64,000 nt of DNA, from assembly GCA_965226195.1 (NCBI GenBank), contig OZ245333.1, forward strand, positions 1,313,759 through 1,377,758, in the 5' to 3' direction. The translations under genes and the position numbers were made by a program. The DNA is from Oligoflexales bacterium. GTDB taxonomy: Bacteria > Bdellovibrionota_B > Oligoflexia > Oligoflexales > JAPPIL01. Below the pieces are notes generated by a model. That model ran no database searches. It was given only the letters and a program-made list of their open reading frames with translations, and was not told the DNA's origin. This document shows, one piece after another, positions 7,871-64,000 of this stretch (position 1 is the first letter of the stretch; every line of letters begins with the position of its first letter).

Positions 7871-8944
7871 ATGTTTGCTGACATGGAACAGATGGGACAT
7901 GAACAGGTTGTTTATTGTTTTGATCAGACTACAGGGCTGCACGCCCTGATTGGTATTCATAGCACGGTACTCGGCCCCGCACTGGGTGGGTGTCGCATGT
8001 GGAACTACGCTAACGAGCACGAAGCATTGCAGGATGTTCTGCGACTGTCGCGGGGCATGACCTACAAGGCGGCGTTGGCTGGCTTGGCTTTGGGAGGCGG
8101 TAAGTCGGTAATTTTTGGCGATCCTGTCAAGGACAAGAGCGAGGCATTGCTACGCAGCTTTGGCAGGTTTGTGAACAGTCTCGGCGGCAGATACATCACT
8201 GCGCAGGATGTTAGCATTAGCAACACTGACTTATTGCACATGCACAAGGAGACCAAGCATGTCGTCGGTCTACCAGCAGAGATGGGTGGTACTGGTGATC
8301 CCTCGCCGATGACGGCACTGGGTGTCTTCAGCGGTATCAAGGCTGCGGTCGAACATCGTTTGCAAAAGAACAGTTTGCGCGGCGTGCGAGTTGCCGTGCA
8401 GGGTTGCGGCAGTGTTGGGAATAAGCTCTGCCACCTGCTGCACAAAGAAGGAGCTGAATTGTGGATCGGTGATATCGATGCGAACAAAACTGCACCGCTG
8501 GTGGCAAGCTGCGGGGCGAAGGTGATAGATAGCGATGCACTGCTATGTGCTGAAGTCGATGTGTTCTCTCCTTGTGCCCTCGGCGCAATTTTGGACGACG
8601 ACAGCATTCCGCAACTGCAGGCCAAAATCGTCGCAGGTGGTGCGAACAACCAGCTAGCAGACGAGAAAGTACATGACGAGATGCTGCGCACCCGCAATAT
8701 TCTCTACGCGCCTGACTATGTCATCAATGCAGGTGGGTTGATCAGCGTTTCGTATGAAATTAAAAAAATGACAGGCACAGCCGCCGAAAAAACCAAAGCA
8801 ATCTATGACACGTTGTTGGAAATCTTCCACCGTGCCGAACAACAGGGTGAAGGCACCGGCAAGACCTCCAACCGTCTCGCCGAAGAGCGGGTGCGTCGGC
8901 AGGTAAGAGCTTCTATCAGCAACCAGCAACGATTGATTGGCTAA
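7871..8944 (+). CDS. leucine dehydrogenase (Glu/Leu/Phe/Val dehydrogenase family)
   Basis: LGPALGGCRMWNY, RLSRGMTYKAALAGLALGGGKSVIFGDP and the NAD-binding VAVQGCGSVG motif closely match the LeuDH pattern. Confidence 0.88.
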   Translation: MFADMEQMGHEQVVYCFDQTTGLHALIGIHSTVLGPALGGCRMWNYANEHEALQDVLRLSRGMTYKAALAGLALGGGKSVIFGDPVKDKSEALLRSFGRFVNSLGGRYITAQDVSISNTDLLHMHKETKHVVGLPAEMGGTGDPSPMTALGVFSGIKAAVEHRLQKNSLRGVRVAVQGCGSVGNKLCHLLHKEGAELWIGDIDANKTAPLVASCGAKVIDSDALLCAEVDVFSPCALGAILDDDSIPQLQAKIVAGGANNQLADEKVHDEMLRTRNILYAPDYVINAGGLISVSYEIKKMTGTAAEKTKAIYDTLLEIFHRAEQQGEGTGKTSNRLAEERVRRQVRASISNQQRLIG

Positions 8945-8954
8945 AACACGAAAT

Positions 8955-9650
8955 TCAAGCAAAGAGCAGTTTCTCCAGTGCCGCGATGCGCTGATTGCTG
9001 TCCAGCTGCTCCCAGTCGGGTAGTTGGTGCAGGTTGCCGTTCTTCAAAACGATGGCACGATCGCACAGCTGCGCGGCGAGCGGTAAAATGTGGGTGCTGA
9101 TCACGTTACTGAGCTGCTGTTGCTTGCGGCTCGTGAGGAGCTCGTGCAGGGTTCTGAGGTGAAAGACATCAAGGCCAGAGAACGGCTCGTCGAGCACCAA
9201 TAGCGGTGGCTGATGCAGGGTGGTGACAGCAAGACCAACTCGCTTCTGCATGCCATGCGAGCAGAGGGTCAGCGGCAAGCTCTTGTAGTGCGCACAATCC
9301 CAACGCTGGAGAGCCAGCGGCACGACTGTGGCACTGTTCAAGCCGTAAAGACGCGCGGCGTAATGCAGCAGTTCCTCGCCGCTAACCCACGGGGGAAAGA
9401 CAGGTGTCTGTGGTAGGAAACCGAGTGCTTTTTTAAGCGCAAAGGCTTCGGGGGTGAAGCGCTGAGCGCGGAAAACTACCTCACCTGCGTCAGGGTCTAG
9501 GTTGGCGGTCATCAGATTGAAGAGGGTGGACTTGCCCGCACCGTTTTTGCCGAGAATTCCGAGTGTTTCGGCACTGTTGACCTGCAGGTTGCAGGGGCCG
9601 AGTTGGAAGCCTGCGGCGAAGGTTTTGTGAATGTCGGTCAGGGTCATCAT
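8955..9650 (-). CDS. ABC transporter ATP-binding protein
   Basis: Walker A GKNGAGKST, a signature-like SHGMQKR and Walker B LLVLDEPFSGLD. Confidence 0.9.
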   Translation of the reverse strand: MMTLTDIHKTFAAGFQLGPCNLQVNSAETLGILGKNGAGKSTLFNLMTANLDPDAGEVVFRAQRFTPEAFALKKALGFLPQTPVFPPWVSGEELLHYAARLYGLNSATVVPLALQRWDCAHYKSLPLTLCSHGMQKRVGLAVTTLHQPPLLVLDEPFSGLDVFHLRTLHELLTSRKQQQLSNVISTHILPLAAQLCDRAIVLKNGNLHQLPDWEQLDSNQRIAALEKLLFA

Positions 9651-10702
9651 GCGCGATAAAACCTACCTTCGCTGTACTGCAACGCATACCAACGCAACAG
9701 CGGATACAGCAGCACGCTGAACCAGCTGGCGAGGATGGCAGTGCCGATGAACAAGGTACTGAGTGTCGCGGTAATATACTGCACCGCGGGACGGCGCACA
9801 TCGATTTGAAACAATAGCAGCGGCATCAGCAGCGGGGCAAGTGCGGCCAGCAGCACGACCTTTAGGACTGCGGGGAGAAGTGGCAATATTGGCTCAGCCA
9901 ACAGCAGTTGCCCACTGATGAAGCAAAAAGCGCAGCACAGCACACAGCAGAGGGCGAGGCTCGCACCAATTTTTTCGCAGGTGCGAACGTATTGGGTGTG
10001 CGAGATGCCGAAGTTTTTTTCCGCCCACGCAAACTGTGCGTCACGAGCTGCCTGTGATGCAAGGCTAAAGGAGGCCAGCAGTCCACAAACGAGTGCTGCG
10101 CAACCAAACACCTGCAGCGGTGCGTTGAGGTAGCTGAGCGGGAAACAACTCAACGCGGCACAAGCGGCGATGCCGAGCAGCAAGCGTTCGCCCTGCAAAA
10201 TCTGCTGCCAGCGCCACGAGAACAGCGTGTGCTGGCTAGCCTTGTGCTGTGGTACGGGGTGGGGGTGGCGGGCGAGCAAGAAGCCGAGCAACAGTGTGGG
10301 CGGAAAAACAAACAGCAGAGATATAAAGGAATTAGCACGCAACAGCAGGTGGCAGAGCAGCACTATGACGGCGGTACTTATCAGCAGCGCCCAGCCGCCG
10401 CGTAGCAAGAGAAAGACGCGTAGCTGGTGTGGTTCTGCGCCGAGATGTCGTTGTAGTTGGCAATAGCGGTCGTGGCTGGCATGGCGCATAAACTTGCCGA
10501 GACCGAAGGCGGTGATCGCGGTGCAAAGTAGTGCGGCTGCATGGGCGAAGCTGTCACGCATTGTAGGGGAGATGGCAGCGACGGCATGGTTGAGAAAATC
10601 GTGGAAGACATAAGCGAAGGTGGCAGCAACGACAAGGGCGCAGAGCATCACGGTGATTTCCTTGCCGAGATCGTAGCGCACCCGGCGCAGCGGTGCAAGC
10701 AT
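9647..10702 (-). CDS. polytopic membrane protein, putative permease partner of the ABC ATPase
   Basis: Multiple hydrophobic segments and a 4-nt overlap with the ATPase start. I prefer the ATG at 10702 (MLAPLRRVRYDL) because the track start at 10897 overlaps the ferredoxin gene. Confidence 0.55.
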   Translation of the reverse strand: MLAPLRRVRYDLGKEITVMLCALVVAATFAYVFHDFLNHAVAAISPTMRDSFAHAAALLCTAITAFGLGKFMRHASHDRYCQLQRHLGAEPHQLRVFLLLRGGWALLISTAVIVLLCHLLLRANSFISLLFVFPPTLLLGFLLARHPHPVPQHKASQHTLFSWRWQQILQGERLLLGIAACAALSCFPLSYLNAPLQVFGCAALVCGLLASFSLASQAARDAQFAWAEKNFGISHTQYVRTCEKIGASLALCCVLCCAFCFISGQLLLAEPILPLLPAVLKVVLLAALAPLLMPLLLFQIDVRRPAVQYITATLSTLFIGTAILASWFSVLLYPLLRWYALQYSEGRFYRA

Positions 10703-19699: not shown

Positions 19700-19885
19700 A
19701 ACCCATTTCACGCGAATGCGCCAGCTGGAGCTAGGAAGCGACAAAGAGCTTGCACACATGTGTGCATGGTGCAGCAGGATGCTTCCTCCCAATCCCAAAC
19801 AAAATTAGCGAACAGAAGGGGTGTGGAGCTAGAAAGCGGCAAAGAGCCGTGCAAAGCGGGGAGGGGAACGCTCCCCGCATACAGA
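19700..19885. repeat. partial copy of the interior modules of the 41140/57653 MITE (no terminal repeats)
   Basis: CCATTTCACGC..CAGCTGGAGCTAGGAAGCGACAAAGAGC..GCACACATGTGTGCATG...GTGTGGAGCTAGAAAGCGGCAAAGAGCCGTGCAAAGCGGGGAGGGGAACGCTCCCCGCATA aligns with 41297-41570 and 57810-58005. Confidence 0.8.
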
Positions 19886-22155: not shown

Positions 22156-22544
22156 CGATGCACCGCCAGTAGGACTGTTATAGATGGTGCCAGCAGAGGC
22201 CGTGTGGCCAAAACATGACGAGTACTGTTGCTAAAGTTCTCATTTTCGCTCTCCTATAAAAAATTATGTAAAATGATCTTCATAACGTGTAAAGATCGCA
22301 CAATCCTATGCAATTAATAATAAAATGTAAATATTTTTTTGTATTTTTTATTTTATCTGTTAAATCAATAACTTGTCTAATTTTATCTTCCATGGCAAGG
22401 AGGAGTGTTCCCGTGCTAACAGCCTGTTGATTGCTCGAAAATTCACTTGGCTATATGGAAAAAATAGAACTATATCAATATGTTATGACGATGGCAGCAT
22501 TATGCAACATAGCCGCTACACCCTCTCGCAGCAGATTTCCGTCA

Positions 22545-39721: not shown

Positions 39722-40960
39722 ATGAGCGAGCGTTTTGGTTTACATTGGGAAGGTCAAGAGCGCAGTCAGCGAGAACTACATTGCCCGCCACAGAGCAAGT
39801 TGCAAGCGTGTCGCGAGCAGTCGGTCAATTGGGATAGCAGCAGCAACATCTTTATTGAGGGTGAAAATCTCGAAGCTCTGAAACTGCTGCAAGCGACGCA
39901 CGCAGCCCAGATAAAGATGATCTACATCGATCCACCTTACAACACAGGGCGGGAGTTTACTTTCTGTGACAACTACCGCACACGACGCAAAGCGCAACAA
40001 GACGATGGCGGACAGCGGCATGCACGTTGGTTGAGTATGATGTATCCACGCCTCTGTCTTGCTCGTGAGCTGTTGCGTGCCGACGGGGTAATTTTTATCA
40101 GCATCGACGATAACGAGCAGGCGACCTTGAAGCTGTTGTGTGAGCAAATTTTTGGCAGTAAAAACTTCATCACCCAGATCATTTGGAAAAAGCGCAACTC
40201 GCCCCCCAACGATCGTGTCATCGGTACACAGCACGAATATGTGCTCGTCTTCGCCAAAGACCACACACAGGTAGAGCTGAACCGTAAGGCGCGCAGTAGC
40301 GCACAGCTGGCACGCTACAAGAACCATGACAACCACCCGAAAGGACGGTGGGCGGCGGACAACTTGATGGCTAACATCAAGGGCGGCAGATATGTGCCGA
40401 CACTGCACTATGCCATCGAGAATCCCACCACGGGTGAGCAGCACTACCCTTCGGGGCAAGGCAACTGGCGTTTCAATAAAGAGAAAATGCAGCGGCTGCT
40501 AGTTGCCGATGAAATTTATTTCGGCAAAGATAAGCGCGGACGACCACAGTTGAAGCGTTTCCTGTGCGACCTCAAGCATGGGGTAAGTTGGTCGTCGTTG
40601 TGGAACACCGCCCCGCTGAACAGTCAGGGGTCGCGGGAGATGCAAACGCTGTTCGGTGACCTTGCGGTCTTTGAGAATCCAAAACCGAGTGGCTTGATCA
40701 AGTTGTTGATCGAACTTGGCTCGGATGAGGGCGACACGGTACTCGATTTTTTTGCTGGTGCAGCCTCGACTGCCGCGGCTGTATTGCAGAGTGGCCGGCA
40801 TTTCTTGCTGGTGCAGTTGCCTGTCGCAGTGCCGCCTAACAGTGCCGCTGCTCGTGCTGGCTATCACGATATCGCGGCTCTGGCACTGGCACGCATTCGG
40901 CTGGAGCTGGAGCGGCATGGTGGTGATGCAGGAGTGAGGGTGCTGCGTCTTGTGCTCTGA
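39722..40960 (+). CDS. site-specific DNA methyltransferase (N6-adenine/N4-cytosine, type III Mod-like), orphan
   Basis: IFIEGENLEALKLLQATHAAQIKMIYIDPPYNTG (DPPY motif IV). C-terminal motif I region VLDFFAGAASTAAAV. No nuclease or helicase gene is adjacent. Confidence 0.85.
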   Translation: MSERFGLHWEGQERSQRELHCPPQSKLQACREQSVNWDSSSNIFIEGENLEALKLLQATHAAQIKMIYIDPPYNTGREFTFCDNYRTRRKAQQDDGGQRHARWLSMMYPRLCLARELLRADGVIFISIDDNEQATLKLLCEQIFGSKNFITQIIWKKRNSPPNDRVIGTQHEYVLVFAKDHTQVELNRKARSSAQLARYKNHDNHPKGRWAADNLMANIKGGRYVPTLHYAIENPTTGEQHYPSGQGNWRFNKEKMQRLLVADEIYFGKDKRGRPQLKRFLCDLKHGVSWSSLWNTAPLNSQGSREMQTLFGDLAVFENPKPSGLIKLLIELGSDEGDTVLDFFAGAASTAAAVLQSGRHFLLVQLPVAVPPNSAAARAGYHDIAALALARIRLELERHGGDAGVRVLRLVL

Positions 40961-41083: not shown

Positions 41084-41740
41084 TGATGGCATAGTGTCTG
41101 CTAATACCTATATCCATCTTTGCGGGCGAGGGTTGTTGCGACTTTGTTGCATAACTCAGGGCAGGCATGTTTATATCCTATAACCCTTTAGCAGTAAGAA
41201 TTTTATAGGTGTTGCAAAGGTAATGCTTGCACTACGCACAAGCCCATAGTGTCCACAGAAGTTGACAATGGTCAGGTGCAAGCAGACCTGCAAACCATTT
41301 CACGCCAATGCTTCAGCTGGAGCTAGGAAGCGACAAAGAGCATGCACACATGTGTGCATGCTGCAGCAGGATGATTGCACCTGACCCAAACGAGAAGTCT
41401 GCGAACACGCAGGGGTGTGGAGCTAGGCGTGCCTTCGGGCACGCCTTTGGCAAAGAGCCGCGCAAAGCGGGGAGGGGAACGCCAAACGGAGCGAGACAAC
41501 ATGCAAGCGTAGCTTGTGATGTTGCGAGCGGAGTGCAGGGGTCAGCGAAGCTAACGCTCCCCGCATAAAAATGCTATGATAACAGCATGTTATAATCAAC
41601 GGAACTTATGCAACAAAGCCGGTTGTTGCGACCTCGGTAGGCTCCTGCCAAGAGGCGCAAGCAAGCCTCGCCCGCATGGGAAAAATGCATAAGTACCATG
41701 CATTATCTGGCAAATACAGCAGACACTATGCCATCACCTT
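41084..41740. mobile_element. outer inverted-repeat-bounded element carrying a nested MITE
   Basis: AAGGTGATGGCATAGTGTCTGCT (about 41087-41109) is the reverse complement of AGCAGACACTATGCCATCACCTT (about 41717-41739). An inner pair GCGGGCGAGG/CCTCGCCCGC is also present. Confidence 0.55.
41140..41620. mobile_element. MITE copy 1 (481 bp) with terminal inverted repeats
   Basis: Left end (G)ACTTTGTTGCATAACT and right end ACTTATGCAACAAAGCC. It is flanked by the direct repeat GGTTGTTGCGA (41131-41141 and 41621-31). It has no ORF and is near-identical to 57653-58058 apart from an extra segment of about 75 bp. Confidence 0.85.
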
Positions 41741-44276: not shown

Positions 44277-44293
44277 AGCTTTGTTGCATAACT
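44277..44293. repeat. solo copy of the MITE terminal repeat
   Basis: AGCTTTGTTGCATAACT vs GGCTTTGTTGCATAACT (16 of 17 positions). No element body is adjacent. Confidence 0.6.
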
Positions 44294-53756: not shown

Positions 53757-56270
53757 ATGTCCCCTACCTGTAACAGATGTGGTGTTATGTATACCGTCTC
53801 AAAGTATCTAAAATCTTTTCATCTCGAAACGGCGACGGCCTTGAAAGAGCCACTTGCCGAGAAAAATGCAATAAAATTAAATGCTTGTGCAATTAAAAAG
53901 CGTATTGTGTTTCCCTCAGGTCAGGCAACGCTGGCCAGTGACGACCTTGATTTGCAGTCACGTCTCTGGCTGCGCAAGAGCCAGAATTTGCAGAAAGCGA
54001 AGCGAGATGGCTTCGTGTTTATCTCGTTGACTGAGCGTGACACACGTTCCCCCGATTTTTGTCAGGTTGGGATTGAGGCGAAGCTGGTCAAGTCGCTCAA
54101 CCTCGACAACGGCGAGAAGGGCTATCTCGTGCGTGGGGTGCGTCGTATGCTGGTCGCATCGCTGGCACGCAAGGAAGACGGTGGCTATCACTCGGTGGTG
54201 AAGCCAATCGAGAACAGCGCACGCGTATCGTCACGCCGTATTTTGCGACAAGTCAGCAGTTTGCGTGCTTCGCTGTCGAAGTTATTGAAATTAAACGATA
54301 ATATTGACAGCAAGACCCGTGCTTTGCTGTTGAGCAGCACCGAAGACCCGCACCGTCTCTGCGATTTGATCGCACCGCACCTGACCATGACCTACGAGGA
54401 ACAGCTGCCGCTGCTGTCGTTGCCCCAGCTTACTGTTCGCCTCGCACTGGTGAGCAAGTATCTCAACCGTGAGATCGAACTACTGAAGTATTCATCTGAC
54501 ATTCAGAAACAGGTCGAGGAGCAGATTACCGCAGGCGAGCGTGCCAACTTCATCAGAGAGCAAATCAAGACCTTACAGGACGAACTAGCCGATCTTGACG
54601 AGCATAGTTCGGAGGTCAAGAGCCTGACCAACGCGGTGCAGCGTGCTGATTTGCCACCCCGTGTGCGTGAGATTGTCTTCAGCGAACTGGAAAAAATAGA
54701 CCTCGCCCCCTATGGTTCAAGCGAATACATGATTTCGCACCAATACCTCAGCTGGCTGAAAGACCTGCCGTGGCAAAGCAAACCGTTCGTGCTCCCCGAG
54801 CTTGATAAAGCCTCGAAGATACTCAACAAAAACCATTTTGGGCTTACCGCTATCAAGGAGCGTATTCTCGAACATCTGGCGGTTATTATTCACAGAAGAA
54901 AGATCGAGGGGCAGATTTTGCTGTTTGTCGGCCCCCCCGGCGTTGGCAAAACCTCGCTGGTCAAGTCGATTGCCGATGCACTGCAACGTAAGATGGTCAA
55001 GATTTCGCTCGGCGGCATGAAAGAAGAGATCGAGATTCGCGGCCTGCGCCGTACCTACGTCGGGGCGATGCCGGGGCGCATCATTCAAGCTATTAAGCAA
55101 GTCGGCGACAGCAGTGCGGTGATTTTGCTCGACGAACTCGACAAACTTGGCAACAGCGATAAGCACAACGACGTGCAGGCAGCGCTGCTGGAAGTGCTTG
55201 ATTACCAGCATAACAAGGCATTCAAGGATCTTTACCTCGACGTGCCGTTTGACCTGTCCAGTATTCTGTTTGTCGCGACAGCTAACGATAGCAGCACGAT
55301 TCCTGCCACACTGTTGAGTCGCATGGAAGTCGTCGAGCTGTCCTCCTACAGCGATCAAGAAAAAATAAAAATTGCGCAGAAACACCTCCTGCCGCAAATC
55401 AGAAAAAAATTACAGATCGCCCCGCGCCGCTTCAACTTTGACAAGGAGGCACTGCTCGCCGTCATCAAGAACTATACACAGGAAGCGGGTGTGCGACAGC
55501 TACAGCGCAAGATCGAGGACATCGGCCGCAAGGTAATCAGACAGCACGTTGCCTTTCGCCAGGAAATTCCCACCTCTATCAGCGGGGCAAGTGTCAATCA
55601 GCATCTCGGCAAGCCGCTCTACCACGACGAGCCGAACGACTTGACCTTGCCACCGGGGGTGGCTGTCGGGCTTGCTTGCACCGCTTTCGGGGGTGAAATA
55701 ATGTATGTCGAGACTATGCAGATGGCGGACAAAAACGGTGGGCTGTTGCTGACGGGATTGCCGGGCAAGGTGATGCAGGAGAGTGCGGCGATGGCACGCT
55801 CGGTAATTACCGCATTGGCAGAAGAACTTGGCATCGAGGCCGCAAGATTGGAAAACTCGCGCCTGCACGTGCATCTGCCCGATGGTGCAACCCCGAAAGA
55901 TGGCCCCAGTGCTGGCTTGGCGGTGTTGCTGGCCTTGACCAGCCTGCTGACTCGCCGTAAAATAAGAGCAAGCCTTGCTGTCAGCGGTGAGATTACCCTG
56001 CGTGGTCAAGTGTTGCCCGTTGGCGGAGTCAAAGAGAAAATGCTCGCGGCCTTTCGCTATCGCAAAAAAGAAATTGTCTTGCCACGTGCCAATTTGTGCG
56101 ATCTACTTGAAGTGCCAGACGAAGTGCTGCGCGCTCTTTCCTTCTACCCAGTGGCAACCATGCGTGAAGCTCTGGTCTGTGCTCGCCTGTTGCCCGTTGC
56201 CCGTCCTGTGCCTGCACCGCAACGCTTGCGCAAGAAGGACATTCTGGCCCTGCTTGCAGAATCGCAATGA
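53757..56270 (+). CDS. lon: ATP-dependent Lon protease
   Basis: Walker A GPPGVGKTSL and the catalytic PKDGPSAG...GGVKEK Ser-Lys dyad. The start is uncertain because a TTGACA-18-TATTTT promoter-like site at 53710-53739 lies very close to 53757. Confidence 0.93.
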   Translation: MSPTCNRCGVMYTVSKYLKSFHLETATALKEPLAEKNAIKLNACAIKKRIVFPSGQATLASDDLDLQSRLWLRKSQNLQKAKRDGFVFISLTERDTRSPDFCQVGIEAKLVKSLNLDNGEKGYLVRGVRRMLVASLARKEDGGYHSVVKPIENSARVSSRRILRQVSSLRASLSKLLKLNDNIDSKTRALLLSSTEDPHRLCDLIAPHLTMTYEEQLPLLSLPQLTVRLALVSKYLNREIELLKYSSDIQKQVEEQITAGERANFIREQIKTLQDELADLDEHSSEVKSLTNAVQRADLPPRVREIVFSELEKIDLAPYGSSEYMISHQYLSWLKDLPWQSKPFVLPELDKASKILNKNHFGLTAIKERILEHLAVIIHRRKIEGQILLFVGPPGVGKTSLVKSIADALQRKMVKISLGGMKEEIEIRGLRRTYVGAMPGRIIQAIKQVGDSSAVILLDELDKLGNSDKHNDVQAALLEVLDYQHNKAFKDLYLDVPFDLSSILFVATANDSSTIPATLLSRMEVVELSSYSDQEKIKIAQKHLLPQIRKKLQIAPRRFNFDKEALLAVIKNYTQEAGVRQLQRKIEDIGRKVIRQHVAFRQEIPTSISGASVNQHLGKPLYHDEPNDLTLPPGVAVGLACTAFGGEIMYVETMQMADKNGGLLLTGLPGKVMQESAAMARSVITALAEELGIEAARLENSRLHVHLPDGATPKDGPSAGLAVLLALTSLLTRRKIRASLAVSGEITLRGQVLPVGGVKEKMLAAFRYRKKEIVLPRANLCDLLEVPDEVLRALSFYPVATMREALVCARLLPVARPVPAPQRLRKKDILALLAESQ

Positions 56271-57451
56271 ACACGATCCTCTATGCCGATGCCAATGCAG
56301 GCTTGCCCGCCACTGCTCGCCACCTCGATCAGGTTTGCAAACGTCTGCTGGCGGCGGACGGCAACCCATCGAGCGTGCATGTCTTCGGACGCAAGGCACG
56401 TATCGCACTGGAGGAATCACGCCGCTACATCTGCAGCTACCTCAAGATAACACCAGATCAGTTTATCTTTACCTCTGGTGGCACGGAGAGCAATAACCTT
56501 GTCATGCGTGCTCGCCTCACCGCGGGCAAGACACCGCATATCATCTACACCGCAGGCGATCATCCCTCAGTGCGTGCTACCGCGACACACTTGAGCGAAC
56601 AAGGCCTGTGCCGTATCGACAAGATACCCCTCGACCGTGATGGCATTGTGCAACGCGACAAGCTCGCACAGCTACTGTGCGATGACACGGTGCTCGTCTG
56701 CTTGACACATGCTAACAGCGAGACGGGAGTCATCAACGATGTCGTGGCACTCGCACGACTGGTGCAAGACCTTCAGCCCCAAGCACACGTGCATTGCGAT
56801 GCGGTACAGACACTGGGTAAGCTCGATTTGCAGGGTTTTTTCAACGACACCGCCATCGACAGTGCCGCGTTTTCGGCGCACAAGCTTGGTGCATTGAAAG
56901 GCTGCGGCGGTCTCTATATCAAGGACAGTCACGCCTTGTCAGCTCAGCTAAGCGGCGGCTCACAAGAACAGCAGCGTCGCGCCGGCACGGAAAACCTCAG
57001 CGGCATCATTTCCTTCGGTCTTGTCATTGCCGCACTGGAAGAACGACTACCGCGCTGGCAACAGCATGTGCAGCAACTCAAGAACCTCCTGTGCGCCGAA
57101 CTCGCTAACATTCCCAACCTCGTGCTGCACGGCAGCCAAGCACACTGTTTGCTAAACACGGTCAGCTTTCATATCGACGGTGTGTGTGGCGAAGATCTGG
57201 TCTTAGGCCTCGACCTCGCGGGTTTCGCTGTTTCTAGCGGCAGTGCCTGCTCGTCAGGTATCTCCCGCAGCAGCCGTGTCCTCGAGGCGATGGGTTATGA
57301 AGATGATGTTGCCAGCAACGCCGTGCGGGTTAGCTTCACCACCCAAGGCGATCGTCACGACATCGTGCGCATGGCCGAAGTGATACGCACTGTGGTTAAG
57401 AACAGCAGCCCTCAGCAGCGGAGACAAGAGCCTGCTGCACTTAATCACTGA
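56267..57451 (+). CDS. cysteine desulfurase (NifS/IscS-like, class V aminotransferase)
   Basis: PLP-Lys motif SAHKLG and catalytic loop SSGSACSSG. It overlaps lon by 4 nt. Confidence 0.9.
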   Translation: MNTILYADANAGLPATARHLDQVCKRLLAADGNPSSVHVFGRKARIALEESRRYICSYLKITPDQFIFTSGGTESNNLVMRARLTAGKTPHIIYTAGDHPSVRATATHLSEQGLCRIDKIPLDRDGIVQRDKLAQLLCDDTVLVCLTHANSETGVINDVVALARLVQDLQPQAHVHCDAVQTLGKLDLQGFFNDTAIDSAAFSAHKLGALKGCGGLYIKDSHALSAQLSGGSQEQQRRAGTENLSGIISFGLVIAALEERLPRWQQHVQQLKNLLCAELANIPNLVLHGSQAHCLLNTVSFHIDGVCGEDLVLGLDLAGFAVSSGSACSSGISRSSRVLEAMGYEDDVASNAVRVSFTTQGDRHDIVRMAEVIRTVVKNSSPQQRRQEPAALNH

Positions 57452-57652
57452 ACAAAACGACAGGTGCGCCAACAAGGGAGAGTTTGCTGACGCACCAATC
57501 TCCAGCCGGGAATATCGGTCGCACCCGCGCCGGAATTCTATTACCACCCTCTTATTCAAGTGATCGGAATTTTTTAAACTTTTGTAAAAAAATATAATTT
57601 ACTCTTTTTATTTTAAGATGTTATCTGGCTATTTTTTTGACGTGCTCCTACC

Positions 57653-58058
57653 GGCTTTGTTGCATAACTCAGGGCCGGCATGTTTATATCCTATAACCCT
57701 TCAGCAGTAAGAATTTTATAGGTGTTGCCAAGGTAATGCCTGCACCACGCACAAGCCCGTAGTGTCCACAGAAGTTGACAATGGTCAGGTGCAAGCAGAC
57801 CTGCAAACCATTTCACGCCAATGCTTCAGCTGGAGCTAGGAAGCGACAAAGAGCATGCACACATGTGTGCATGCTGCAGCAGGATGATTGCACCTGACTC
57901 AAACGAGAAGTCTGCGAACACGCAGGGGTGTGGAGCTAGGCGTGCCTTCGGGCACGCCTTTGGCAAAGAGCCGCGCAAAGCGGGGAGGGGAACGATCCCC
58001 ACATAAAAGTGCTATGATAACAGCATGTTATAATCAACGGAACTTATGCAACAAAGCC
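57653..58058. mobile_element. MITE copy 2 (406 bp)
   Basis: GGCTTTGTTGCATAACT ... ACTTATGCAACAAAGCC. The interior is near-identical to 41140-41620. Confidence 0.88.
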
Positions 58059-58109
58059 GAGTCAGCCACCCCACATAGCTAGCTGACTCCCTATTTTCGT
58101 GATGCTCGC

Positions 58110-58916
58110 CTAGAGCGCTAAGGCATCCGCGTTGACTTTGAGTTTGTAGAACCGTGCCATTGCCTTCAGTATGACCCGCAGGTTGTCGTCATCCTCCAAG
58201 CTAGTCACGTTACGGAAACTGGTAACAGAAGTAACGTCATGCCAGTATTGATGTGTGACAATGGCAGTTGGGCTGAACTGATGCGTAAAAAAGCCAGTTT
58301 TTATTGCCTTGGGGTATGCTCGACCTGCGTCATCACCGCTACGCTTCCTGCGTGCGTCTCGCTTAGTAAGCTTTATCCATTCATGAACCGCAACAATTGC
58401 CATGCCAGTACCAAAAACAATACTGGCAGTACCAAAAAGAATCGGGAATTCACTTGTGTAGCCAGTTGATATAGCCAACGCCACATCAAGTACTCCTGTC
58501 CCAATGAGTAGAGTACCTAAAATCCCATTCGTTACAACTCTTTCCCCAACGCCATCTGCTTCATCGAGCGGCGACTGACCTAGCTCTCTAGCTTCAGATG
58601 CGAATTCAGATTCCAGATGTGTGACATCCTTATGTGCTGCATCCAGCTTGTTGCCGATAAAATCAACCTCTTGGCCACTTTTGCTCAGCAACGCACTGCG
58701 GCACACGTTCTTATCAGCAAACGTTGCGGCACTGTATTCTGGCAATTTTTTGCAGACCAGCAAACGATAGCGCTGATCTTTTGCTGTTGATCCAGCCTGC
58801 AAAGGCACGATTCCCAGCACATGTTCGCCGTTGGTTATCGCGGCGGTCTTTGCTACAGGACTCTGACCACAAGCACAGATAGCCAAACAAATTAATGAAG
58901 ATAATAGCTTAGACAT
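58110..58916 (-). CDS. hypothetical lipoprotein/membrane protein, tandem paralog 1
   Basis: The ATG at 58916 gives MSKLLSSLICLAICACGQ (lipobox). A central hydrophobic region is present, and the C-terminus ...MARFYKLKVNADALAL is conserved with paralog 2. Confidence 0.6.
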   Translation of the reverse strand: MSKLLSSLICLAICACGQSPVAKTAAITNGEHVLGIVPLQAGSTAKDQRYRLLVCKKLPEYSAATFADKNVCRSALLSKSGQEVDFIGNKLDAAHKDVTHLESEFASEARELGQSPLDEADGVGERVVTNGILGTLLIGTGVLDVALAISTGYTSEFPILFGTASIVFGTGMAIVAVHEWIKLTKRDARRKRSGDDAGRAYPKAIKTGFFTHQFSPTAIVTHQYWHDVTSVTSFRNVTSLEDDDNLRVILKAMARFYKLKVNADALAL

Positions 58917-59053
58917 GTTACTTTCCTTAAGTAAAATAGGCAAATCACATATATAATATTCACAATAATATTGCAATAGGAAATTTTTTAAAAAATTATA
59001 GTAAGTTACAGGTCAGCGGCACAGAGTTCAATTGAATTCAGCCGCGGGGCATT

Positions 59054-59194
59054 GCAGGCCAGCACACTGTTTGCTAAACACGGTCAGCTTTCATATCGAC
59101 GGTGTGTATGGAGAAGATCTGGTCTTAGGCCTCGACCTTGCCGGCTTTGCTGTTTCTAGCGGCAGTGCTTGTTCGTCAGGAATAGCTCGCAGCA
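59054..59194 (+). pseudogene. relic fragment of the cysteine desulfurase gene
   Basis: Aligns with 57131-57272 at roughly 90% identity by eye ([39 protein letters not shown]). Confidence 0.85.
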
Positions 59195-59241
59195 CAGCCA
59201 CCCCACATAGCTAGCTGACTCCCTATCTTAGTGATGCCCTC

Positions 59242-60078
59242 CTAGAGTGCTAAGGCATCCGTGTTGACTTTGAGTTTGTAGAACCGTGCCATTGCCACTA
59301 GTATGGCACGCAAGTTGCTCTCGTATTCCAAGTTAGTCACAGCGCGGAAATCAACCAAAGAAATGTCCCGCCAGTGTTGATGTGCGATTAGGTCAGTTGG
59401 GATGAGCTTAGCTTTAGAAATGCGACCCCTTGCTGTCCTCTTGGGATATTCTCGCCCCGCGTCATCACCGCTACGCTCTCTGCGTTCGTTACGCTTAGCG
59501 ATCTTTATCCCCCTGTTAACTGCACCAACTACTATGAGCGCACCAAAAACAATAAGGCCAGCAGTAGCAACAACACTAGTAACGTGTATCAAAGAGTCAA
59601 GACCAGAAGCGGGGGGAGTAGATACCTTGTCTGCACTGAGGAGATGCTTTTGATATAATACCCCTAAAAGAACAGATAGCCCCCCAATCATTGCATGAGA
59701 CGCAACTGAACTTCCCCTTTTTTCGCTGAGCGGCGACTGGCCAAACTCCCTAGCTGCAGGTGCTAAGTAAGACTCCAGATGTGTGACATCCTTACTTACT
59801 CCATCCAGCTTGTTGCCAACAAGATCAACCTCTTGGCCATCTTTAGTCAGCAGAGCACTGCGGCAGACGTTCTGGTCAGCAAACTCTGCGGCACTGTATG
59901 CTGGCAATTTCTTGCAAACCAGCAGACGATAGCGTTGATCTTCTGCTGTTGCACCGCCCCGCAAAGGCACGATGCCTAGCACGTGCTTGCTGTTGGCTAC
60001 CGCCGCGGTCTTTGCTACAGGATTTTGACCGCAAGCGCACATAGCTAAACAAATCAATAAATATAATAGTTTATGCAT
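59242..60078 (-). CDS. hypothetical lipoprotein/membrane protein, tandem paralog 2
   Basis: The ATG at 60078 gives MHKLLYLLICLAMCACGQ. The N-terminal 120 aa or so and the C-terminal 80 aa or so resemble paralog 1, and the middle is unrelated. Confidence 0.6.
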   Translation of the reverse strand: MHKLLYLLICLAMCACGQNPVAKTAAVANSKHVLGIVPLRGGATAEDQRYRLLVCKKLPAYSAAEFADQNVCRSALLTKDGQEVDLVGNKLDGVSKDVTHLESYLAPAAREFGQSPLSEKRGSSVASHAMIGGLSVLLGVLYQKHLLSADKVSTPPASGLDSLIHVTSVVATAGLIVFGALIVVGAVNRGIKIAKRNERRERSGDDAGREYPKRTARGRISKAKLIPTDLIAHQHWRDISLVDFRAVTNLEYESNLRAILVAMARFYKLKVNTDALAL

Positions 60079-60189
60079 GTATCTATCCTTAAAATAAAAA
60101 ATACCAATTATATTATATAATTTTAATAATAAAATTGCAATAGTAAAAATTATCAAAGATTAAAGTAATTTACAGATAAGCGATACAGT

Positions 60190-61305
60190 TCAGTGGAACT
60201 CCGCCGCGGGGCATTGCAGACCAGCTGAACAGGGTTTGAAGGTGAGTTTGGCAAAGCCGGGCACGTCGCCACGTGGTTTCAAGCTCATCCACATGCCCTT
60301 GAGCTTGAGAGCACGATCGAACATGATGTGGCCGAGCGTAAACTCCTTTTTGTGCTTCTCCGCAGTGGTGCGCATCTCATAGCGGAAGAAACTGTCTTTC
60401 TGCTTGCGGTCGTCGGGGAAGGTAGTGACGTTGAGGTGTTCCTTAACCCCGATGGAATAGAAGAATACCAACTGGTGCGGCTCGTAGGACTGCAGCAGTA
60501 CCCTTGCCAGCAGCAAGTGCGTCCACTTGAGTTGCACGAGCGCGTGTGCCAGCTGCATAAACTCGGTGTCTCCCCGTGCACTGGCATCAAAGGGTAACTC
60601 TTGCATGGCTGGCAGCGCGGGCGCAGTGCCTTGTTGTAACTCAAGCACGGCATGGTAGGTTGTGTTTATCAGCGCGAGCATGTTTTGCTCTAACAAACAC
60701 TTGCCGCGGCGTTTTTTGTGAGAAATTCTTTTTGTGCGCAGTTCGTTTTCTTTTTTATTAATTTCTGCCGTAACTTTATCACGTTCAAAAAACCTTTTCC
60801 CAGCAAATTTAATCTCAACCTGTGTGTCAAGATTGCTAAACGCATAAGCAGCACGCTTAGCGATGTGTAGCTTAGAAAAACCACGATAGCATGCCTCTAC
60901 CAGTTCAAGCAGTTCGGTTTCCCTTCCGCTGACTTCTTGCCCAAATTTTTGCAACTTACCTATCTGTCTGCTCCGCTCCAAAGCTAGCCAGCTAAGTCGC
61001 AGCGGCAGTGTCACTCCGTTATACTCCTTGTTGCTAGTGGTGTAGGTGCTGTCGGCATGGTAAAAACGCATAGGTTGATTTTCGAGATACTGCTGCCCTT
61101 TATCTGTCGGGGCAAGATAGCCAGCAATCATGATCTGCTGGCCTTGCTCGGCAGCTCGCACATGCATGTGGGCAATTGTTCCCTTTGCGGTGGCATTGAC
61201 AGACCAACTAAAAGTTTGAATCGTGGCAGTGCTAGTGTCCACCCGTGCCTTGAACTTTATCGTGCAACTGGCGAGTAAAATTAAAACAACAGGCATAATC
61301 TTCAT
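60190..61305 (-). CDS. hypothetical lipoprotein
   Basis: MKIMPVVLILLASC lipobox. No recognisable domain. Confidence 0.55.
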   Translation of the reverse strand: MKIMPVVLILLASCTIKFKARVDTSTATIQTFSWSVNATAKGTIAHMHVRAAEQGQQIMIAGYLAPTDKGQQYLENQPMRFYHADSTYTTSNKEYNGVTLPLRLSWLALERSRQIGKLQKFGQEVSGRETELLELVEACYRGFSKLHIAKRAAYAFSNLDTQVEIKFAGKRFFERDKVTAEINKKENELRTKRISHKKRRGKCLLEQNMLALINTTYHAVLELQQGTAPALPAMQELPFDASARGDTEFMQLAHALVQLKWTHLLLARVLLQSYEPHQLVFFYSIGVKEHLNVTTFPDDRKQKDSFFRYEMRTTAEKHKKEFTLGHIMFDRALKLKGMWMSLKPRGDVPGFAKLTFKPCSAGLQCPAAEFH

Positions 61306-61439: not shown

Positions 61440-61955
61440 ATGCAGGACGGCTGGATTTCTATCAACGACTACGCTCGCAAGTTCAACGTCTCGGACATCA
61501 CTGTGCGCAGACGTATCAAACAGGGCAAAATACCCGCAGAACTGAAAAACGGCAAATACTACGTCAGAGCCGATTACCAAGATACGAGCACAGCTGCAGG
61601 GCAGAACGCCACTCCGCCACCGGGAGTTGTCTCCACCACCCGTCCCTCGTTCTCACTACCGCCACCGCCAACCAGCGTGTCCTACACGGCTACCGAGCCA
61701 CCCAAAGTCGTTGCGACAGAAATACCCATGCAGACTACCCCCCCTCCAGCGCAGCAGAGCAAAGAACTACTGGAGTTCTGCGATCGCTATCTCGCCGAGC
61801 TAAAGACTAGAGAACAGCATCTTGCCAAAAGACATGAGTCAGAGATAGCCCTGCTCGAAGCCAAGCTCGCCAAGAAGGACAGCGAAATCACCGCCCTAAA
61901 ACAACAAATCGAAGATCTGCAACTACTCGTTAAAATTCTCGAAAACAAAATTTAA
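61440..61955 (+). CDS. excisionase/MerR-like HTH protein with Pro-rich linker and C-terminal coiled coil
   Basis: ISINDYARKFNVSDITVRRRIKQGKIPAELKNGKYYV resembles the excisionase-family HTH. The C-terminus reads LEAKLAKKDSEITALKQQIEDLQLLVKILENK. Confidence 0.6.
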   Translation: MQDGWISINDYARKFNVSDITVRRRIKQGKIPAELKNGKYYVRADYQDTSTAAGQNATPPPGVVSTTRPSFSLPPPPTSVSYTATEPPKVVATEIPMQTTPPPAQQSKELLEFCDRYLAELKTREQHLAKRHESEIALLEAKLAKKDSEITALKQQIEDLQLLVKILENKI

Positions 61956-62177: not shown

Positions 62178-64000
62178 ATGCACGTGCGGGCAACGAGCTG
62201 TCTGGCTCTGCTGCTGTTCTGTGTTGCGCCGCTGCACGCGAGTGAGCGCGTCGATGCGTTGCTGGCACGCAGCGAAGCACGTCTTGGTGGTCTTGGTGGG
62301 CTTGATGCTGATCCTACCGAACTGCCCAAACCACCGTTTGGCGAAGCACTCGTCTCGCCGCTAAACATCGCCACCTTCCTCGCAGGCGTAGGTGTAGCCG
62401 AAGGTATCAACTCCCAACTGCTCAACGACCCGATGCGATTACAGGAATACTTCGTTTCACTCGGACAGCCGCTGACCTACATAGCCTTCATGATTTTCGA
62501 CATGTCCCGCTACACGATCAGCCGCAGCCTCTATCCGCTGACCTCCAACCCTTACACTATTCGCAGTCATCGTGATCTCAATTTCATCGACAAAACTGGT
62601 GGCTACATCGCCCTTGCGGGTGCATCGACCGTCTTGCACCTGCTGTTTGAAATTATCTACTCACCGCATTTCAAAAAACTACAAACCGCTTCCGATGCAA
62701 CCGCCTTCAAACACGATTTAAATAAGCTGCTGCGGGAAAATTTTCTTTCCACTGATCGCTGGATTGGCCGCGGCATCGGCACAACCACCCTGCTCGCCGC
62801 CGCCGTCAGTCAAGGCTATGTCGCGGGCTTGCGCATGCCCCTGCAAGAAAAAATTAAAAGCACCATCTATCGTGCCATTGCCAGCCGCCCGCTGGTCGCC
62901 GATGACTTGTTGCTGCAAACGTCTTATGACGGACACGGCCTCTATGTGGAAAACATTATCGCCAAAAAAAATGGGGCAATTAACCATGCCGACCTCACCA
63001 AATACCTACACCAGCCGATCAAACTGAAAAAAGTTACCATCATGCTGCCCCGCTTCAAACTGAAGGGCAAGTATCTCGCCTTCACTGGTGCAAGCGTCGG
63101 GATAATGCTGCACGTGCTCGATATGGCGCTGTTCATCGAATTCGATCACCTCTACACCGCCCTGATCGAACAACCGCTGTGGCAGTTTATCCATGCACAA
63201 CGCATCGCCAAACTGAACACCACCATCAAGGACATCTGTGCCAGCTTGCTGCGCTCGCAGGACTCTTTGCCGCTTTCTGCTTCGCGGGACTCTTTGCCGC
63301 TTTCTGCTTCGCGGGACTCTTTGCCGCTTTCTAGCTCCATGCCGCTTTCTGCTTCGCGGGACTCTTTGCCGCTTTCTAGCTCCATGCCGCTTTCTGCTTC
63401 GCGGGACTCTTTGCCGCTTTCTAGCTCCATGCCGCTTTCTGCTTCGCAGGACTCTTTGCCGCTTTCTAGCTCGCTGCGCTCGCAGGACTCTTTGCCGCTT
63501 TCTGCTTCGCGGGACTCTTTGCCGCTTTCTAGCTCCATGCCGCTTTCTGCTTCGCGGGACTCTTTGCCGCTTTCTAGCTCCATGCCGCTTTCTGCTTCGC
63601 AGGACTCTTTGCCGCTTTCTAGCTCCACGCCCGACCTGCAAAAGCTGCGTTCCCATCTCGACCAGCTGTCACAAAGCTGGTTCGATTACCGCATGCTGTT
63701 CATTCTCAAACTGCTGATGTCCTTGCGTAGCTGGCACGATGAACTAATGCACCAAGATCGCCGCTTCTACCAACGCCTGTCCTTCTATCGCTGGCTGCTT
63801 AAAGGTGGTGACTATCACGACGCACAGTTTCTCTACAACAATCACAACTGGCACGCTGCGCCGCACCGCGCAGAGTTTCAACGCACCAAAACCAAAATGA
63901 TCAAAGACATGTTCTATGGCTTTCGCCAACTCGATTTTTTCAACTACAGTTTCTTCGGCAAAACTATTGCCCACCAGCACTTCCCCGCCATTATTCCGCC
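62178..64000 (+). CDS. secreted protein with a Ser/Leu/Pro tandem-repeat region (3' end beyond the window)
   Basis: Translated by hand: ATG 62178, signal MHVRATSCLALLLFCVAPLHA, and no stop up to position 64000 (more than 607 codons). It is missing from the ORF track, presumably because it has no stop in the window. Confidence 0.6.
   Translation, partial: MHVRATSCLALLLFCVAPLHASERVDALLARSEARLGGLGGLDADPTELPKPPFGEALVSPLNIATFLAGVGVAEGINSQLLNDPMRLQEYFVSLGQPLTYIAFMIFDMSRYTISRSLYPLTSNPYTIRSHRDLNFIDKTGGYIALAGASTVLHLLFEIIYSPHFKKLQTASDATAFKHDLNKLLRENFLSTDRWIGRGIGTTTLLAAAVSQGYVAGLRMPLQEKIKSTIYRAIASRPLVADDLLLQTSYDGHGLYVENIIAKKNGAINHADLTKYLHQPIKLKKVTIMLPRFKLKGKYLAFTGASVGIMLHVLDMALFIEFDHLYTALIEQPLWQFIHAQRIAKLNTTIKDICASLLRSQDSLPLSASRDSLPLSASRDSLPLSSSMPLSASRDSLPLSSSMPLSASRDSLPLSSSMPLSASQDSLPLSSSLRSQDSLPLSASRDSLPLSSSMPLSASRDSLPLSSSMPLSASQDSLPLSSSTPDLQKLRSHLDQLSQSWFDYRMLFILKLLMSLRSWHDELMHQDRRFYQRLSFYRWLLKGGDYHDAQFLYNNHNWHAAPHRAEFQRTKTKMIKDMFYGFRQLDFFNYSFFGKTIAHQHFPAIIP
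63261..63626. repeat. tandem array of 27-, 36- and 45-bp units built on the dispersed core motif
   Basis: There are 10 units. GACTCTTTGCCGCTTTCTGCTTCGCGG encodes DSLPLSASR. GACTCTTTGCCGCTTTCTAGCTCCATGCCGCTTTCTGCTTCGCGG encodes DSLPLSSSMPLSASR. All unit lengths are multiples of 3. Confidence 0.92.

Follow-up and report, generated by a model that had tools for sequence, protein, structure and literature searches.

A tandem pair of diverged lipoprotein genes with relics of both flanking genes at the seam in an Oligoflexales genome

Results

Gene content of the locus

The window analyzed here is a 64,000-nucleotide stretch of contig OZ245333.1 (positions 1,313,759 to 1,377,758) in assembly GCA_965226195.1 of an Oligoflexales bacterium. 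The window strain (W) was compared with relatives L001–L007, of which L006 and L007 are two sister species reached via Lon. W and its relatives are metagenome-derived assemblies, some with low coverage. The features of the locus are listed in Table 1. The product of the nifS-like gene matched Pfam Aminotran_5 (E 4.4e-55), and its top NCBIfam matches were NifS/IscS models, every one of them under its cutoff. This gene adjoins Lon in L001, L002, L005, L006, and L007, a conserved arrangement. Gene G, called at 371 aa in L002–L005 as well, gave no family match in Pfam, NCBIfam, PHROGs, or PADLOC. An Rfam search of the window detected no RNA family, and terminator and promoter scans of the window gave counts not above those of shuffles; regulatory roles of the promoter-like and terminator-like sites are only suggested.

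Table 1. Coordinates of the features in the window (position 1 is its first letter).
Feature	Position	Strand	Remark
nifS-like cysteine desulfurase gene, 394 aa	56267–57451	+	intact parent of the nifS' relic
nifS source segment with SSGSACSSG loop	57131–57272	+	copied at 59054–59194
MITE, 406 bp, terminal inverted repeats GGCTTTGTTGCATAA	57653–58058		later insertion, outside the duplication
Hairpin GAGTCAGC-15 nt-GCTGACTC	58059–58089		directly beyond the P1 stop codon
Unit 1	58063–59063	-	holds the P1 gene with its 3' flank and AT-rich upstream region, and the G' relic
P1, 268-aa predicted lipoprotein	58110–58916	-	signal peptide with CACGQ lipobox, two hydrophobic helices
TTGCAA element upstream of P1	within 58950–58978	-	homologous to that of P2 (repeat comparison)
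G' relic, last 11 codons and stop of gene G	59025–59063	-	repeat with 60187–60225
Junction 1, G'/nifS'	59054–59063		GCAGGCCAGC, shared short homology ending in AGC
nifS' relic, 47 internal nifS codons, frame kept	59054–59194	+	unambiguously nifS-derived from 59064
Junction 2, nifS'/unit 2	59190–59199		CAGCA/CAGCC (slash, breakpoint)
Unit 2	59195–60225	-	holds the P2 gene with its truncated hairpin and AT-rich upstream region, and the real G's 3' end
P2, 278-aa paralog of P1	59242–60078	-	56% identical protein
Promoter-like site TTGCAA-17-TATAAT upstream of P2	60112–60140	-	10/12 consensus match only
Gene G, 371-aa predicted lipoprotein, LLASC lipobox	60190–61305	-	parent of the G' relic

P1 and P2 belong to a rare, unannotated, lineage-restricted family of predicted lipoproteins with a variable pair of hydrophobic helices. 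The lipobox A-C-G was invariant in all family members (13/13); with a hydrophobic N-terminal segment, it makes up a predicted lipoprotein signal peptide. In the P proteins, omega was 0.2–0.35 in the N domain and about 1 or more in the centre. P1 and P2 had no match in Pfam and NCBIfam (E <= 0.1), PHROGs, or PADLOC, and a Foldseek comparison of the AlphaFold2 model (pLDDT 71.5) with the PDB returned nothing under E 0.28; the likeness of the model to the helical hairpins of AhlB/SmhB and TolQ/ExbB was not significant. Searching 1.84 billion representatives with a profile yielded 78 proteins. Among them are longer relatives in which the shared N- and C-terminal modules lie around a long insert, and none carried a Pfam domain at gathering score. 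Other family members were located at unrelated loci. The setting is a fast-evolving envelope lipoprotein in a little-known, uncultured, and possibly host-associated Oligoflexales lineage.

Repeats and junctions

Comparison by blastn and repeat comparison confirmed the three repeat pairs described in an earlier, sequence-only reading of this DNA. The segment 59054–59194 matched 57132–57272 at 90.1% (blastn, E 2.5e-50), and 59025–59063 matched 60187–60225 at 87%. The third pair, described as 59195–59241 repeating the hairpin and 3' flank at 58064–58109, was recovered from 58063, within the left arm of the hairpin, and proved wider: 59195–59573 matched 58063–58438 (75%, E 6e-71) and 59728–60225 matched 58566–59063 (81%, E 2.7e-132; both blastn), and the similarity of unit 1 to unit 2 covers the whole gene beyond the hairpin alone. 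The units are direct repeats in the same orientation at a spacing of 1132–1162, each with its own AT-rich upstream region. As the sequence-only reading had it, the locus is a head-to-tail array of two units that extends from within nifS as far as the 3' end of G.

At junction 1, the G' relic (equivalent to 60187–60225) abuts the nifS' relic (equivalent to 57132–57272) between 59063 and 59064, so that the distal end is joined to the proximal start. The junction decamer agrees with GCAGACCAGC of G (60216–60225) at nine of ten positions and with GCAGCCAAGC of nifS (57132–57141) at eight of ten, which bears out the earlier placement of the join in a short sequence resembling both genes. An identical AGC ends all three decamers and constitutes the exact homology. 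Illegitimate recombination at this short homology (GCAG.CCAGC) joined the units and left two relics at the seam, one with the final 11 codons of G and one with 47 codons from the interior of nifS. Junction 2 omits the counterpart of the nifS tail along with the spacer and the hairpin's left arm (57273–58062 are absent from copy 2), and the copy-2 hairpin is reduced to CAGC..GCTG (4 bp). Both junctions were also present in L001 and L002, which are independent metagenome assemblies from other samples.

Divergence of the relics

We compared the relics with their parent genes. Between nifS' and nifS (44 codons), Sd was 10 and Nd 2 (pS 0.306, pN 0.020), and between G' and G there were four synonymous changes and one non-synonymous change, with the stop codon retained. 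Combined, the relics showed 14 synonymous and 3 non-synonymous differences, a split that, on a base of 55 codons only, has P = 2.4e-4 if the relics were neutral throughout their divergence and P = 0.01 if they were neutral for half of it. This is not the pattern of copies identical at birth whose relics decay neutrally; the pS of 0.31 with a pN of 0.02 is the signature expected if the inserted segment came from a functional gene of another lineage. Two of the three non-synonymous differences match working alleles (Ala in nifS of L006/L007, Asn in G of L001), and changes specific to the relic lineage were synonymous in 5/6 cases. The relics differ almost solely at synonymous sites, suggesting that the units diverged inside working genes before the junction formed.

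The pS of nifS' (0.31) equals the synonymous divergence between the conserved domains of P1 and P2 (0.31 and 0.36) and sits between the strain-level value for W and L001 (0.088) and the species-level value for W and L006 (0.42–0.47). The contrast noted earlier between flanks of about 90% identity and far more different proteins holds in its figures (90.1% and 56%), but the flanks are equally diverged at silent sites. Since the P proteins tolerate or favour amino acid change, this would explain the two values side by side.

On comparing the relics of W with those of L001, 3 of 168 sites differed, whereas a background dS of 0.09 would predict about 15 (P = 2e-4); single-base differences are unreliable in L001, a 2x assembly, as in L002 at 3x. 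The relics are too alike for the background, suggesting that the seam is younger than the strain backgrounds carrying it. Over its first 55 nt, nifS' has the same sequence as nifS of the window, which looks like gene conversion, and the relic would then not be evolving independently.

Variation among related strains and the MITE

Comparison with related strains revealed that the array is unstable and that copy number varies. The L005 unit is type 1 at all informative sites with a single switch to type 2 at the start codon, a P1/P2 hybrid, while L003 has a single copy with one switch, in the 3' flank. The units of L001 and L002 are mosaics, and their alleles appear to be products of gene conversion. 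Only P2 is kept in two assemblies, and nifS' is wholly lost in the L003/L004 and L005 strains. P2 of W and L001 differed at dS 0.34 and were 61% identical as proteins against a background of 97% identity. The mosaic alleles and this excess allelic divergence indicate that recombination occurs between strains. We rejected both L003 and L005 as representatives of an ancestral state with one copy, each being 98–100% identical to one window unit and then switching once to the other type. A single-copy nifS-P-G donor or ancestral locus was not found in GTDB genomes by family alignment or in JGI metagenomes. L006 and L007 have Lon-nifS, with P and G absent downstream.

The element between nifS and P1 has perfect terminal inverted repeats of 15 nt (57653–57667 and 58044–58058) and a DNA fold z of -8.2. 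Its open reading frames of at least 50 aa were only short, overlapping ones of 58–61 aa on both strands (57821–58006, +; 57826–58002, -). With its inverted repeats, small size, and apparent lack of a transposase gene, it is classed here as a putative MITE. A second copy lies at 41140–41620 of the window (97%), flanked by the 9-bp target-site duplication (TSD) GGTTGTTGC. In L002 and L005 the MITE is flanked by the 9-bp TSD GCTCCTACC, and in L001 and L003 it is absent with the target site intact and uninterrupted. The empty sites and the TSD indicate that the MITE inserted after the join. They rule out the MITE as part of the segment deleted from copy 2: the earlier statement that copy 2 lacks the end of nifS together with the MITE was right about the nifS tail and spacer, but the MITE had never been in copy 2. 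In the window, 88 bp are deleted beside the MITE, the right TSD included. L003 carries an IS of 1182 bp with a DDE_Tnp_1 transposase and terminal inverted repeats GGCGTTGTTGCATAA (14/15 match); no internal similarity of this IS to the MITE or the window was detected.

Discussion

We consider it probable that the array consists of already-diverged working alleles from separate lineages, which were joined later or spread by recombination. At synonymous sites the units would have come to differ by about 0.31 while nifS' and G' still belonged to working genes, and, being non-identical when joined, one of them would come from another lineage of the same genus. By one route, imported DNA would integrate additively, with homology anchoring one end and microhomology joining the other; junction 1 has one such joint, at roughly 3–10 bp of microhomology. 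By another, the array would have been born elsewhere and then been spread by homologous recombination, the crossovers lying within the P genes. A specific version, additive allele capture, in which DNA of a related lineage (silent distance about 0.3) integrated beside a resident allele of a hypervariable envelope lipoprotein gene with one end by microhomology, giving an instant paralog pair whose seam was then spread by homologous recombination, is a tentative proposal to which we give somewhat less than even odds. A silent-site distance of about 0.3 is several times deeper than that among the sampled strains. The second breakpoint passes over the nifS tail and spacer. After the join came the insertion of the MITE between nifS and P1 and, in the window strain, the subsequent loss of the adjoining 88 bp. 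The repeats now serve as recombination substrates, with unequal crossing-over deleting a unit and gene conversion shuffling segments between copies and strains, and the outcome is two, one, or zero intact copies depending on the strain.

A rival in line with the sequence-only reading is a classical duplication of one ancestral unit in place, through unequal exchange mediated by microhomology or through template switching, after which genes and relics diverged over a long time. Such an event would produce exactly the head-to-tail structure, end-to-start junction, and short homology seen here, and the array is common to strains differing by dS 0.09. However, the relics fit it poorly, with 14 synonymous against 3 non-synonymous differences and a kept stop codon (P = 2.4e-4), and those of W and L001 are closer than the background silent divergence permits. 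Duplication in place would hold only with later replacement of nifS and G or of the whole unit, which amounts in effect to a union of diverged alleles, and we regard it as unlikely. Against a union of diverged alleles, no single-copy nifS-P-G lineage at the needed distance was found, so no donor type is among the sampled genomes, and duplication in place with replacement of the flanking nifS and G alleles would give the same pattern, though with more events.

The silent bias could also arise if nifS' had been kept by selection, either as a 60-aa ORF (59032–59214) including the Cys loop or as an antisense target of P2 read-through past its truncated hairpin. This ORF is open with a TTG start, pN is just 0.02, and the P2-side hairpin is down to 4 bp. 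However, G' has the same silent bias on the opposite strand and outside every ORF of at least 50 aa, the L003/L004 and L005 strains do without nifS', and independent folding of a 47-residue piece of a PLP enzyme seems unlikely. We therefore consider a function of nifS' very improbable. False expansion of a single copy during assembly might be suspected for a metagenome-derived window with similarly derived relatives, some at low coverage. Because the window shares its junctions with two assemblies of other samples, such an artefact is excluded for practical purposes, and the copies, just 75–83% identical in DNA, are so unlike that an assembler would keep them apart.

Tandem paralogs are usually interpreted as the products of duplication and later divergence. 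At this locus, truncated pieces of the neighbouring genes may serve as internal clocks, suggesting a far greater age for the copies than for the seam between them. A union of diverged alleles, if true, would give direct, locus-level support to the view that gene families in bacteria often expand by gaining diverged versions rather than by in-place copying. Under additive allele capture, such relics would also offer a general way to tell the age of a junction from that of the copies. The sequel is seen in five related assemblies: apparent collapse of the array through unequal crossing-over, gene conversion, insertion of the MITE, and small deletions. The kinds of event involved are already known and ordinary; the case is unusually well documented, and its value is as illustration and method, with no new concept.

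The tandem lipoprotein-like lpl cluster of Staphylococcus aureus varies in copy number and segment combination by strain through homologous recombination in conserved intragenic blocks (Tsuru and Kobayashi 2008, PMC2568036). Both loci have tandem lipoproteins with variable regions and co-evolving intergenic regions, and the present one shares with lpl the predicted lipoprotein signal peptides in tandem and the copy-number and mosaic variation (L005, L003, L001/L002). P1 and P2 showed no homology to the Lpl family (no Pfam or NCBIfam match at E <= 0.1). In contrast to lpl, the present locus has just two copies, its conserved blocks lie at both ends with the variable block central, an arrangement that is reversed in lpl, and datable relics of both flanking genes are kept at the seam.

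Microhomology events of the MMBIR/FoSTeS type copy resident sequence and would yield copies identical at birth. They resemble the present case in the end-to-start junction with 3 exact bases (8–9/10 in the decamer), in a second nearby breakpoint, and in a complex junction holding a short templated piece (nifS'), whereas the relic signature here argues against identity at birth.

Homology-facilitated illegitimate recombination, reportedly described by de Vries and Wackernagel in 2002, and merodiploids resemble this case in that incoming DNA gives rise to a partial duplication in tandem or to an additive insertion, one of whose joints lies at a very short homology. Pneumococcal merodiploids made by transformation carry duplications of 100–900 kb with IS repeats at their borders (Johnston et al. 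2013, PMC3784515), whereas the event here spans about 1.2–1.9 kb with a junction without IS. Those are laboratory events with known donors; the present event is read from sequence alone.

According to Treangen and Rocha, gene families were said in 2011 to expand by xenologs rather than by duplication. We use xenologs in the sense of Darby et al. (2017, PMC5860392). As in such expansion, the apparent paralogs here would have diverged before coexisting in one genome. Studies of xenologs offer genome-wide statistics, whereas this is one locus with its physical junction kept, in which the partner is probably a tandemly placed, diverged allele of that same locus.

Structure of the array

Comparison of the region 57000-60400 with the window by blastn recovered every repeat listed in the sequence-only reading. 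The interval 59054-59194 matched 57132-57272 at 90.1% identity (E 2.5e-50), 59195-59573 matched 58063-58438 at 75% (E 6e-71), and 59728-60225 matched 58566-59063 at 81% (E 2.7e-132). The matches extended along the complete units U1 and U2, indicating that the repeat consists of two whole units, and the earlier structural reading of a head-to-tail array with relics of both neighbouring genes was correct. The predicted lipoproteins P1 and P2 shared 56% protein identity, and the upstream regions in both units had a GC content of 0.28-0.35.

Coordinates of the array and its neighbours in the window
Feature	Position	Strand	Description
nifS	56267-57451	plus	nifS-like gene
MITE	57653-58058		406 bp; perfect 15-nt terminal inverted repeats (TIRs)
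U1	58063-59063		whole repeat unit; P1 and AT-rich upstream region
P1	58110-58916	minus	268 aa
G' relic	59025-59063		between U1 and U2; duplicates the final 39 bp of G
nifS' relic	59054-59194		between U1 and U2; copy of nifS interior
U2	59195-60225		whole repeat unit; P2 and AT-rich upstream region
P2	59242-60078	minus	278 aa
G	60190-61305	minus	predicted lipoprotein gene

The seam decamer GCAGGCCAGC matched G at 9 of 10 positions and nifS at 8 of 10, with AGC ending all three. The second breakpoint, CAGCA/CAGCC at 59194/59195, leads from nifS codon 336 into a hairpin (58059-58089), midway along its left arm. Another hairpin with a 13-bp stem (57463-57496) lies directly 3' of the nifS stop codon, has a terminator-like score on the minus strand, and is kept in strains L001 and L003.

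On the other side of the array, G is transcribed divergently from a gene (61440-61955, plus strand) whose 171-aa product combines an HTH_17/excisionase-like helix-turn-helix at the N-terminus (below the Pfam cutoff) with a C-terminal coiled coil and has weak matches to PHROG terminase-small/excisionase and PADLOC mad1. A near-perfect 45-bp tandem repeat array (63295-63631; periods of 108 and 153 were also scored) is probably inside a long gene running off the window end. The corresponding gene encodes 760 aa in L002, 763 in L005, 769 in L004 and 799 in L003, and the window-L001 alignment is gapped at the repeats, indicating that repeat number varies between strains.

Related strains and the MITE

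Five related contigs from other samples were recovered through the P family, which comprised 13 proteins among 5.8 billion. L002 (99% identity to the window) had the window structure plus 88 bp beside the MITE, and L001 (97% in Lon-nifS, dS 0.09) had both units and both junctions without the MITE. L005 (99.4%) had one unit only; L003 and L004 (97%) had one unit adjoining an insertion sequence (IS), with Lon-nifS no longer adjacent. Since the junctions were identical in three independent assemblies, an assembly artefact was excluded. The Lon protein also matched two Oligoflexales MAG chromosomes of sister species (L006 and L007), OY282434.1 (92% amino acid identity) and OZ244057.1 (89%); Lon-nifS was present in both, and P and G were both absent downstream of it.

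The IS of L003 (7191-8372; also in L004) is 1182 bp long, encodes a DDE_Tnp_1 transposase, and has TIRs (GGCGTTGTTGCATAA) matching those of the MITE at 14 of 15 positions. In L003 it is placed exactly at the start of the nifS-downstream spacer, with unrelated genes in place of Lon-nifS, implying that this strain underwent a rearrangement associated with the IS. In L001, G is split into two ORFs by a frameshift (8772-9889); with the contig covered only approximately 2x, the split may reflect an error in sequencing instead of a pseudogene.

The MITE DNA fold was strong (z = -8.2). A second copy (41140-41620, 97%) adjoins a DNA methylase gene (39722-40960); it is interrupted by 71 bp of inserted sequence and flanked by a 9-bp duplication (GGTTGTTGC). 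The window also contained a partial copy of 79% identity (19700-19881) and, at 22500-22514 and 44277-44291, isolated TIR-like 15-mers that each had a single mismatch. The site beside nifS was uninterrupted in L001 and L003 (GTGCTCCTACCCCCTAGAGCG...), whereas GCTCCTACC stood on either side of the MITE in L002 and L005; the insertion thus followed array formation. The sequence-only reading had described copy 2 as lacking the nifS end plus MITE; this holds for the nifS tail but not for the later MITE, and the segments missing are the nifS tail, a spacer of ~200 bp and a further ~100 bp. A segment of 88 bp on the right side of the MITE is missing from the window strain alone (58058/58059 versus L002 8111-8022 and L005 6737-6648). 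Both a GAGTCAGCC repeat and the target-site duplication on the right were within this segment, so that the window's MITE copy shows no target duplication.

Predicted P proteins

Every P family member had a predicted signal peptide, closed by a lipobox with an invariant A-C-G. Behind it, mean pairwise identity in 20-column blocks was 51-79% across a conserved N-terminal domain and 9-13% across two hardly conserved hydrophobic helices; conservation was moderate in the C-terminal domain that follows. dN/dS was 0.2-0.35 in the N domain, 0.3-0.8 in the C domain, and about 1 to 1.8 in the central region, where the alignment is uncertain. In the AlphaFold2 model (pLDDT 71.5), the N domain is rich in beta structure, the C domain is small and helical, and two long helices lie between them; the model had no significant structural neighbour in the PDB by Foldseek. 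The family was named by none of the libraries searched (Pfam, NCBIfam, PHROGs, PADLOC).

Profile search added longer relatives of 415-766 aa. The two examined over full length, P0031 and P0035, kept the N and C modules and carried a long charged Glu/Lys/Arg-rich insert between the hydrophobic segments. The N and C domains may thus share one side of the membrane, with the variable part making up the hairpin plus loop. At two other loci (L014 6823-9247 and L016 454-1660), family members adjoin Fic-domain and ankyrin-repeat genes, weakly hinting that these Oligoflexales are host-associated and interact with eukaryotic hosts.

Recombination and age of the seam

We scored sites where U1 and U2 of the window differ as type 1 or type 2, respectively. 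The L005 unit was type 1 throughout, with a single switch to type 2 at the start codon; the P2 upstream region precedes a P1 body, the product expected of unequal crossing-over. This hybrid, the sole remaining P gene, is frameshifted by the loss of 43 bp between two CAGCAAACG direct repeats (equivalent of 58725-58767), leaving L005 without an intact copy at the locus. In L003, the first six sites were type 1 and the rest type 2, placing the crossover in the 3' flank. L001 U1, L001 U2 and L002 U2 were patchworks; the L001 copies were 96-98% identical over ~100 bp where the window copies were 68-76% identical. P2 of the window and L001 shared 61% protein identity (dS 0.34) in a neighbourhood 97% identical. 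Judged from these sequences, the array is recombinationally active.

Over 44 unambiguous codons in the nifS frame, 10 of the changes between nifS' and resident nifS were synonymous and 2 were non-synonymous (pS 0.306, pN 0.020). Between G' and G, 4 changes were synonymous and 1 was non-synonymous, and G' still carried the stop codon (G ends ...EFH*). The non-synonymous share of 3/17 compares with ~62% expected under neutral drift since unit divergence (P = 2.4e-4); for a relic neutral for half that time, P = 0.01. Selection on a relic peptide is an unlikely cause of this pattern, as G' lies on the opposite strand outside every ORF of at least 50 aa and the relics were lost from L003 and L005. 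Two of the three amino acid differences occur in working alleles (Ala in L006/L007 nifS, Asn in L001 G). The relic silent-site distance (0.31) equalled that of P1 and P2 in conserved domains (0.31 and 0.36) and fell between window-L001 (0.088) and window-L006 (0.42-0.47), whereas the window and L001 relics differed at 3 of 168 sites against ~15 predicted from background dS (P = 2e-4). Relics as deep as P1-P2 yet nearly identical between strains indicate that the seam is young and the units old, and the seam appears to have moved between strain backgrounds.

Over its initial 55 nt, nifS' was identical to nifS of the window, L002 and L005, including the Leu codon CTA at 57152-57154 (within CTG CTA, Leu-Leu, 57149-57154). 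At the equivalent position, nifS of L001, L006 and L007 encodes Pro, and Leu is present in nifS' of all strains, a pattern suggestive of gene conversion in the window/L002/L005 lineage, from the relic into the working gene.

The finding is real and all events are of known kinds; the history of the array, however, differs from the simple duplication and subsequent divergence proposed earlier, given the relic substitution pattern and a seam younger than its units. In the simplest readings, an imported diverged allele would have integrated additively through one homologous and one microhomology joint, or the array would have been born elsewhere and entered other strains afterwards, by recombination with crossovers within the P genes. 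Duplication in situ, with both flanking alleles replaced later, is a possible route that requires more steps.

Comparison with known systems

The proposed origin would resemble homology-facilitated illegitimate recombination, transformation-made merodiploids (PMC3784515) and family growth by xenologs, in each case as an analogy of mechanism only. Of known systems, the S. aureus lpl tandem lipoprotein cluster comes closest; in it, recombination between conserved blocks reshuffles variable parts and alters copy number (PMC2568036). The P genes have the reverse arrangement of conserved and variable blocks and no sequence relationship to Lpl.
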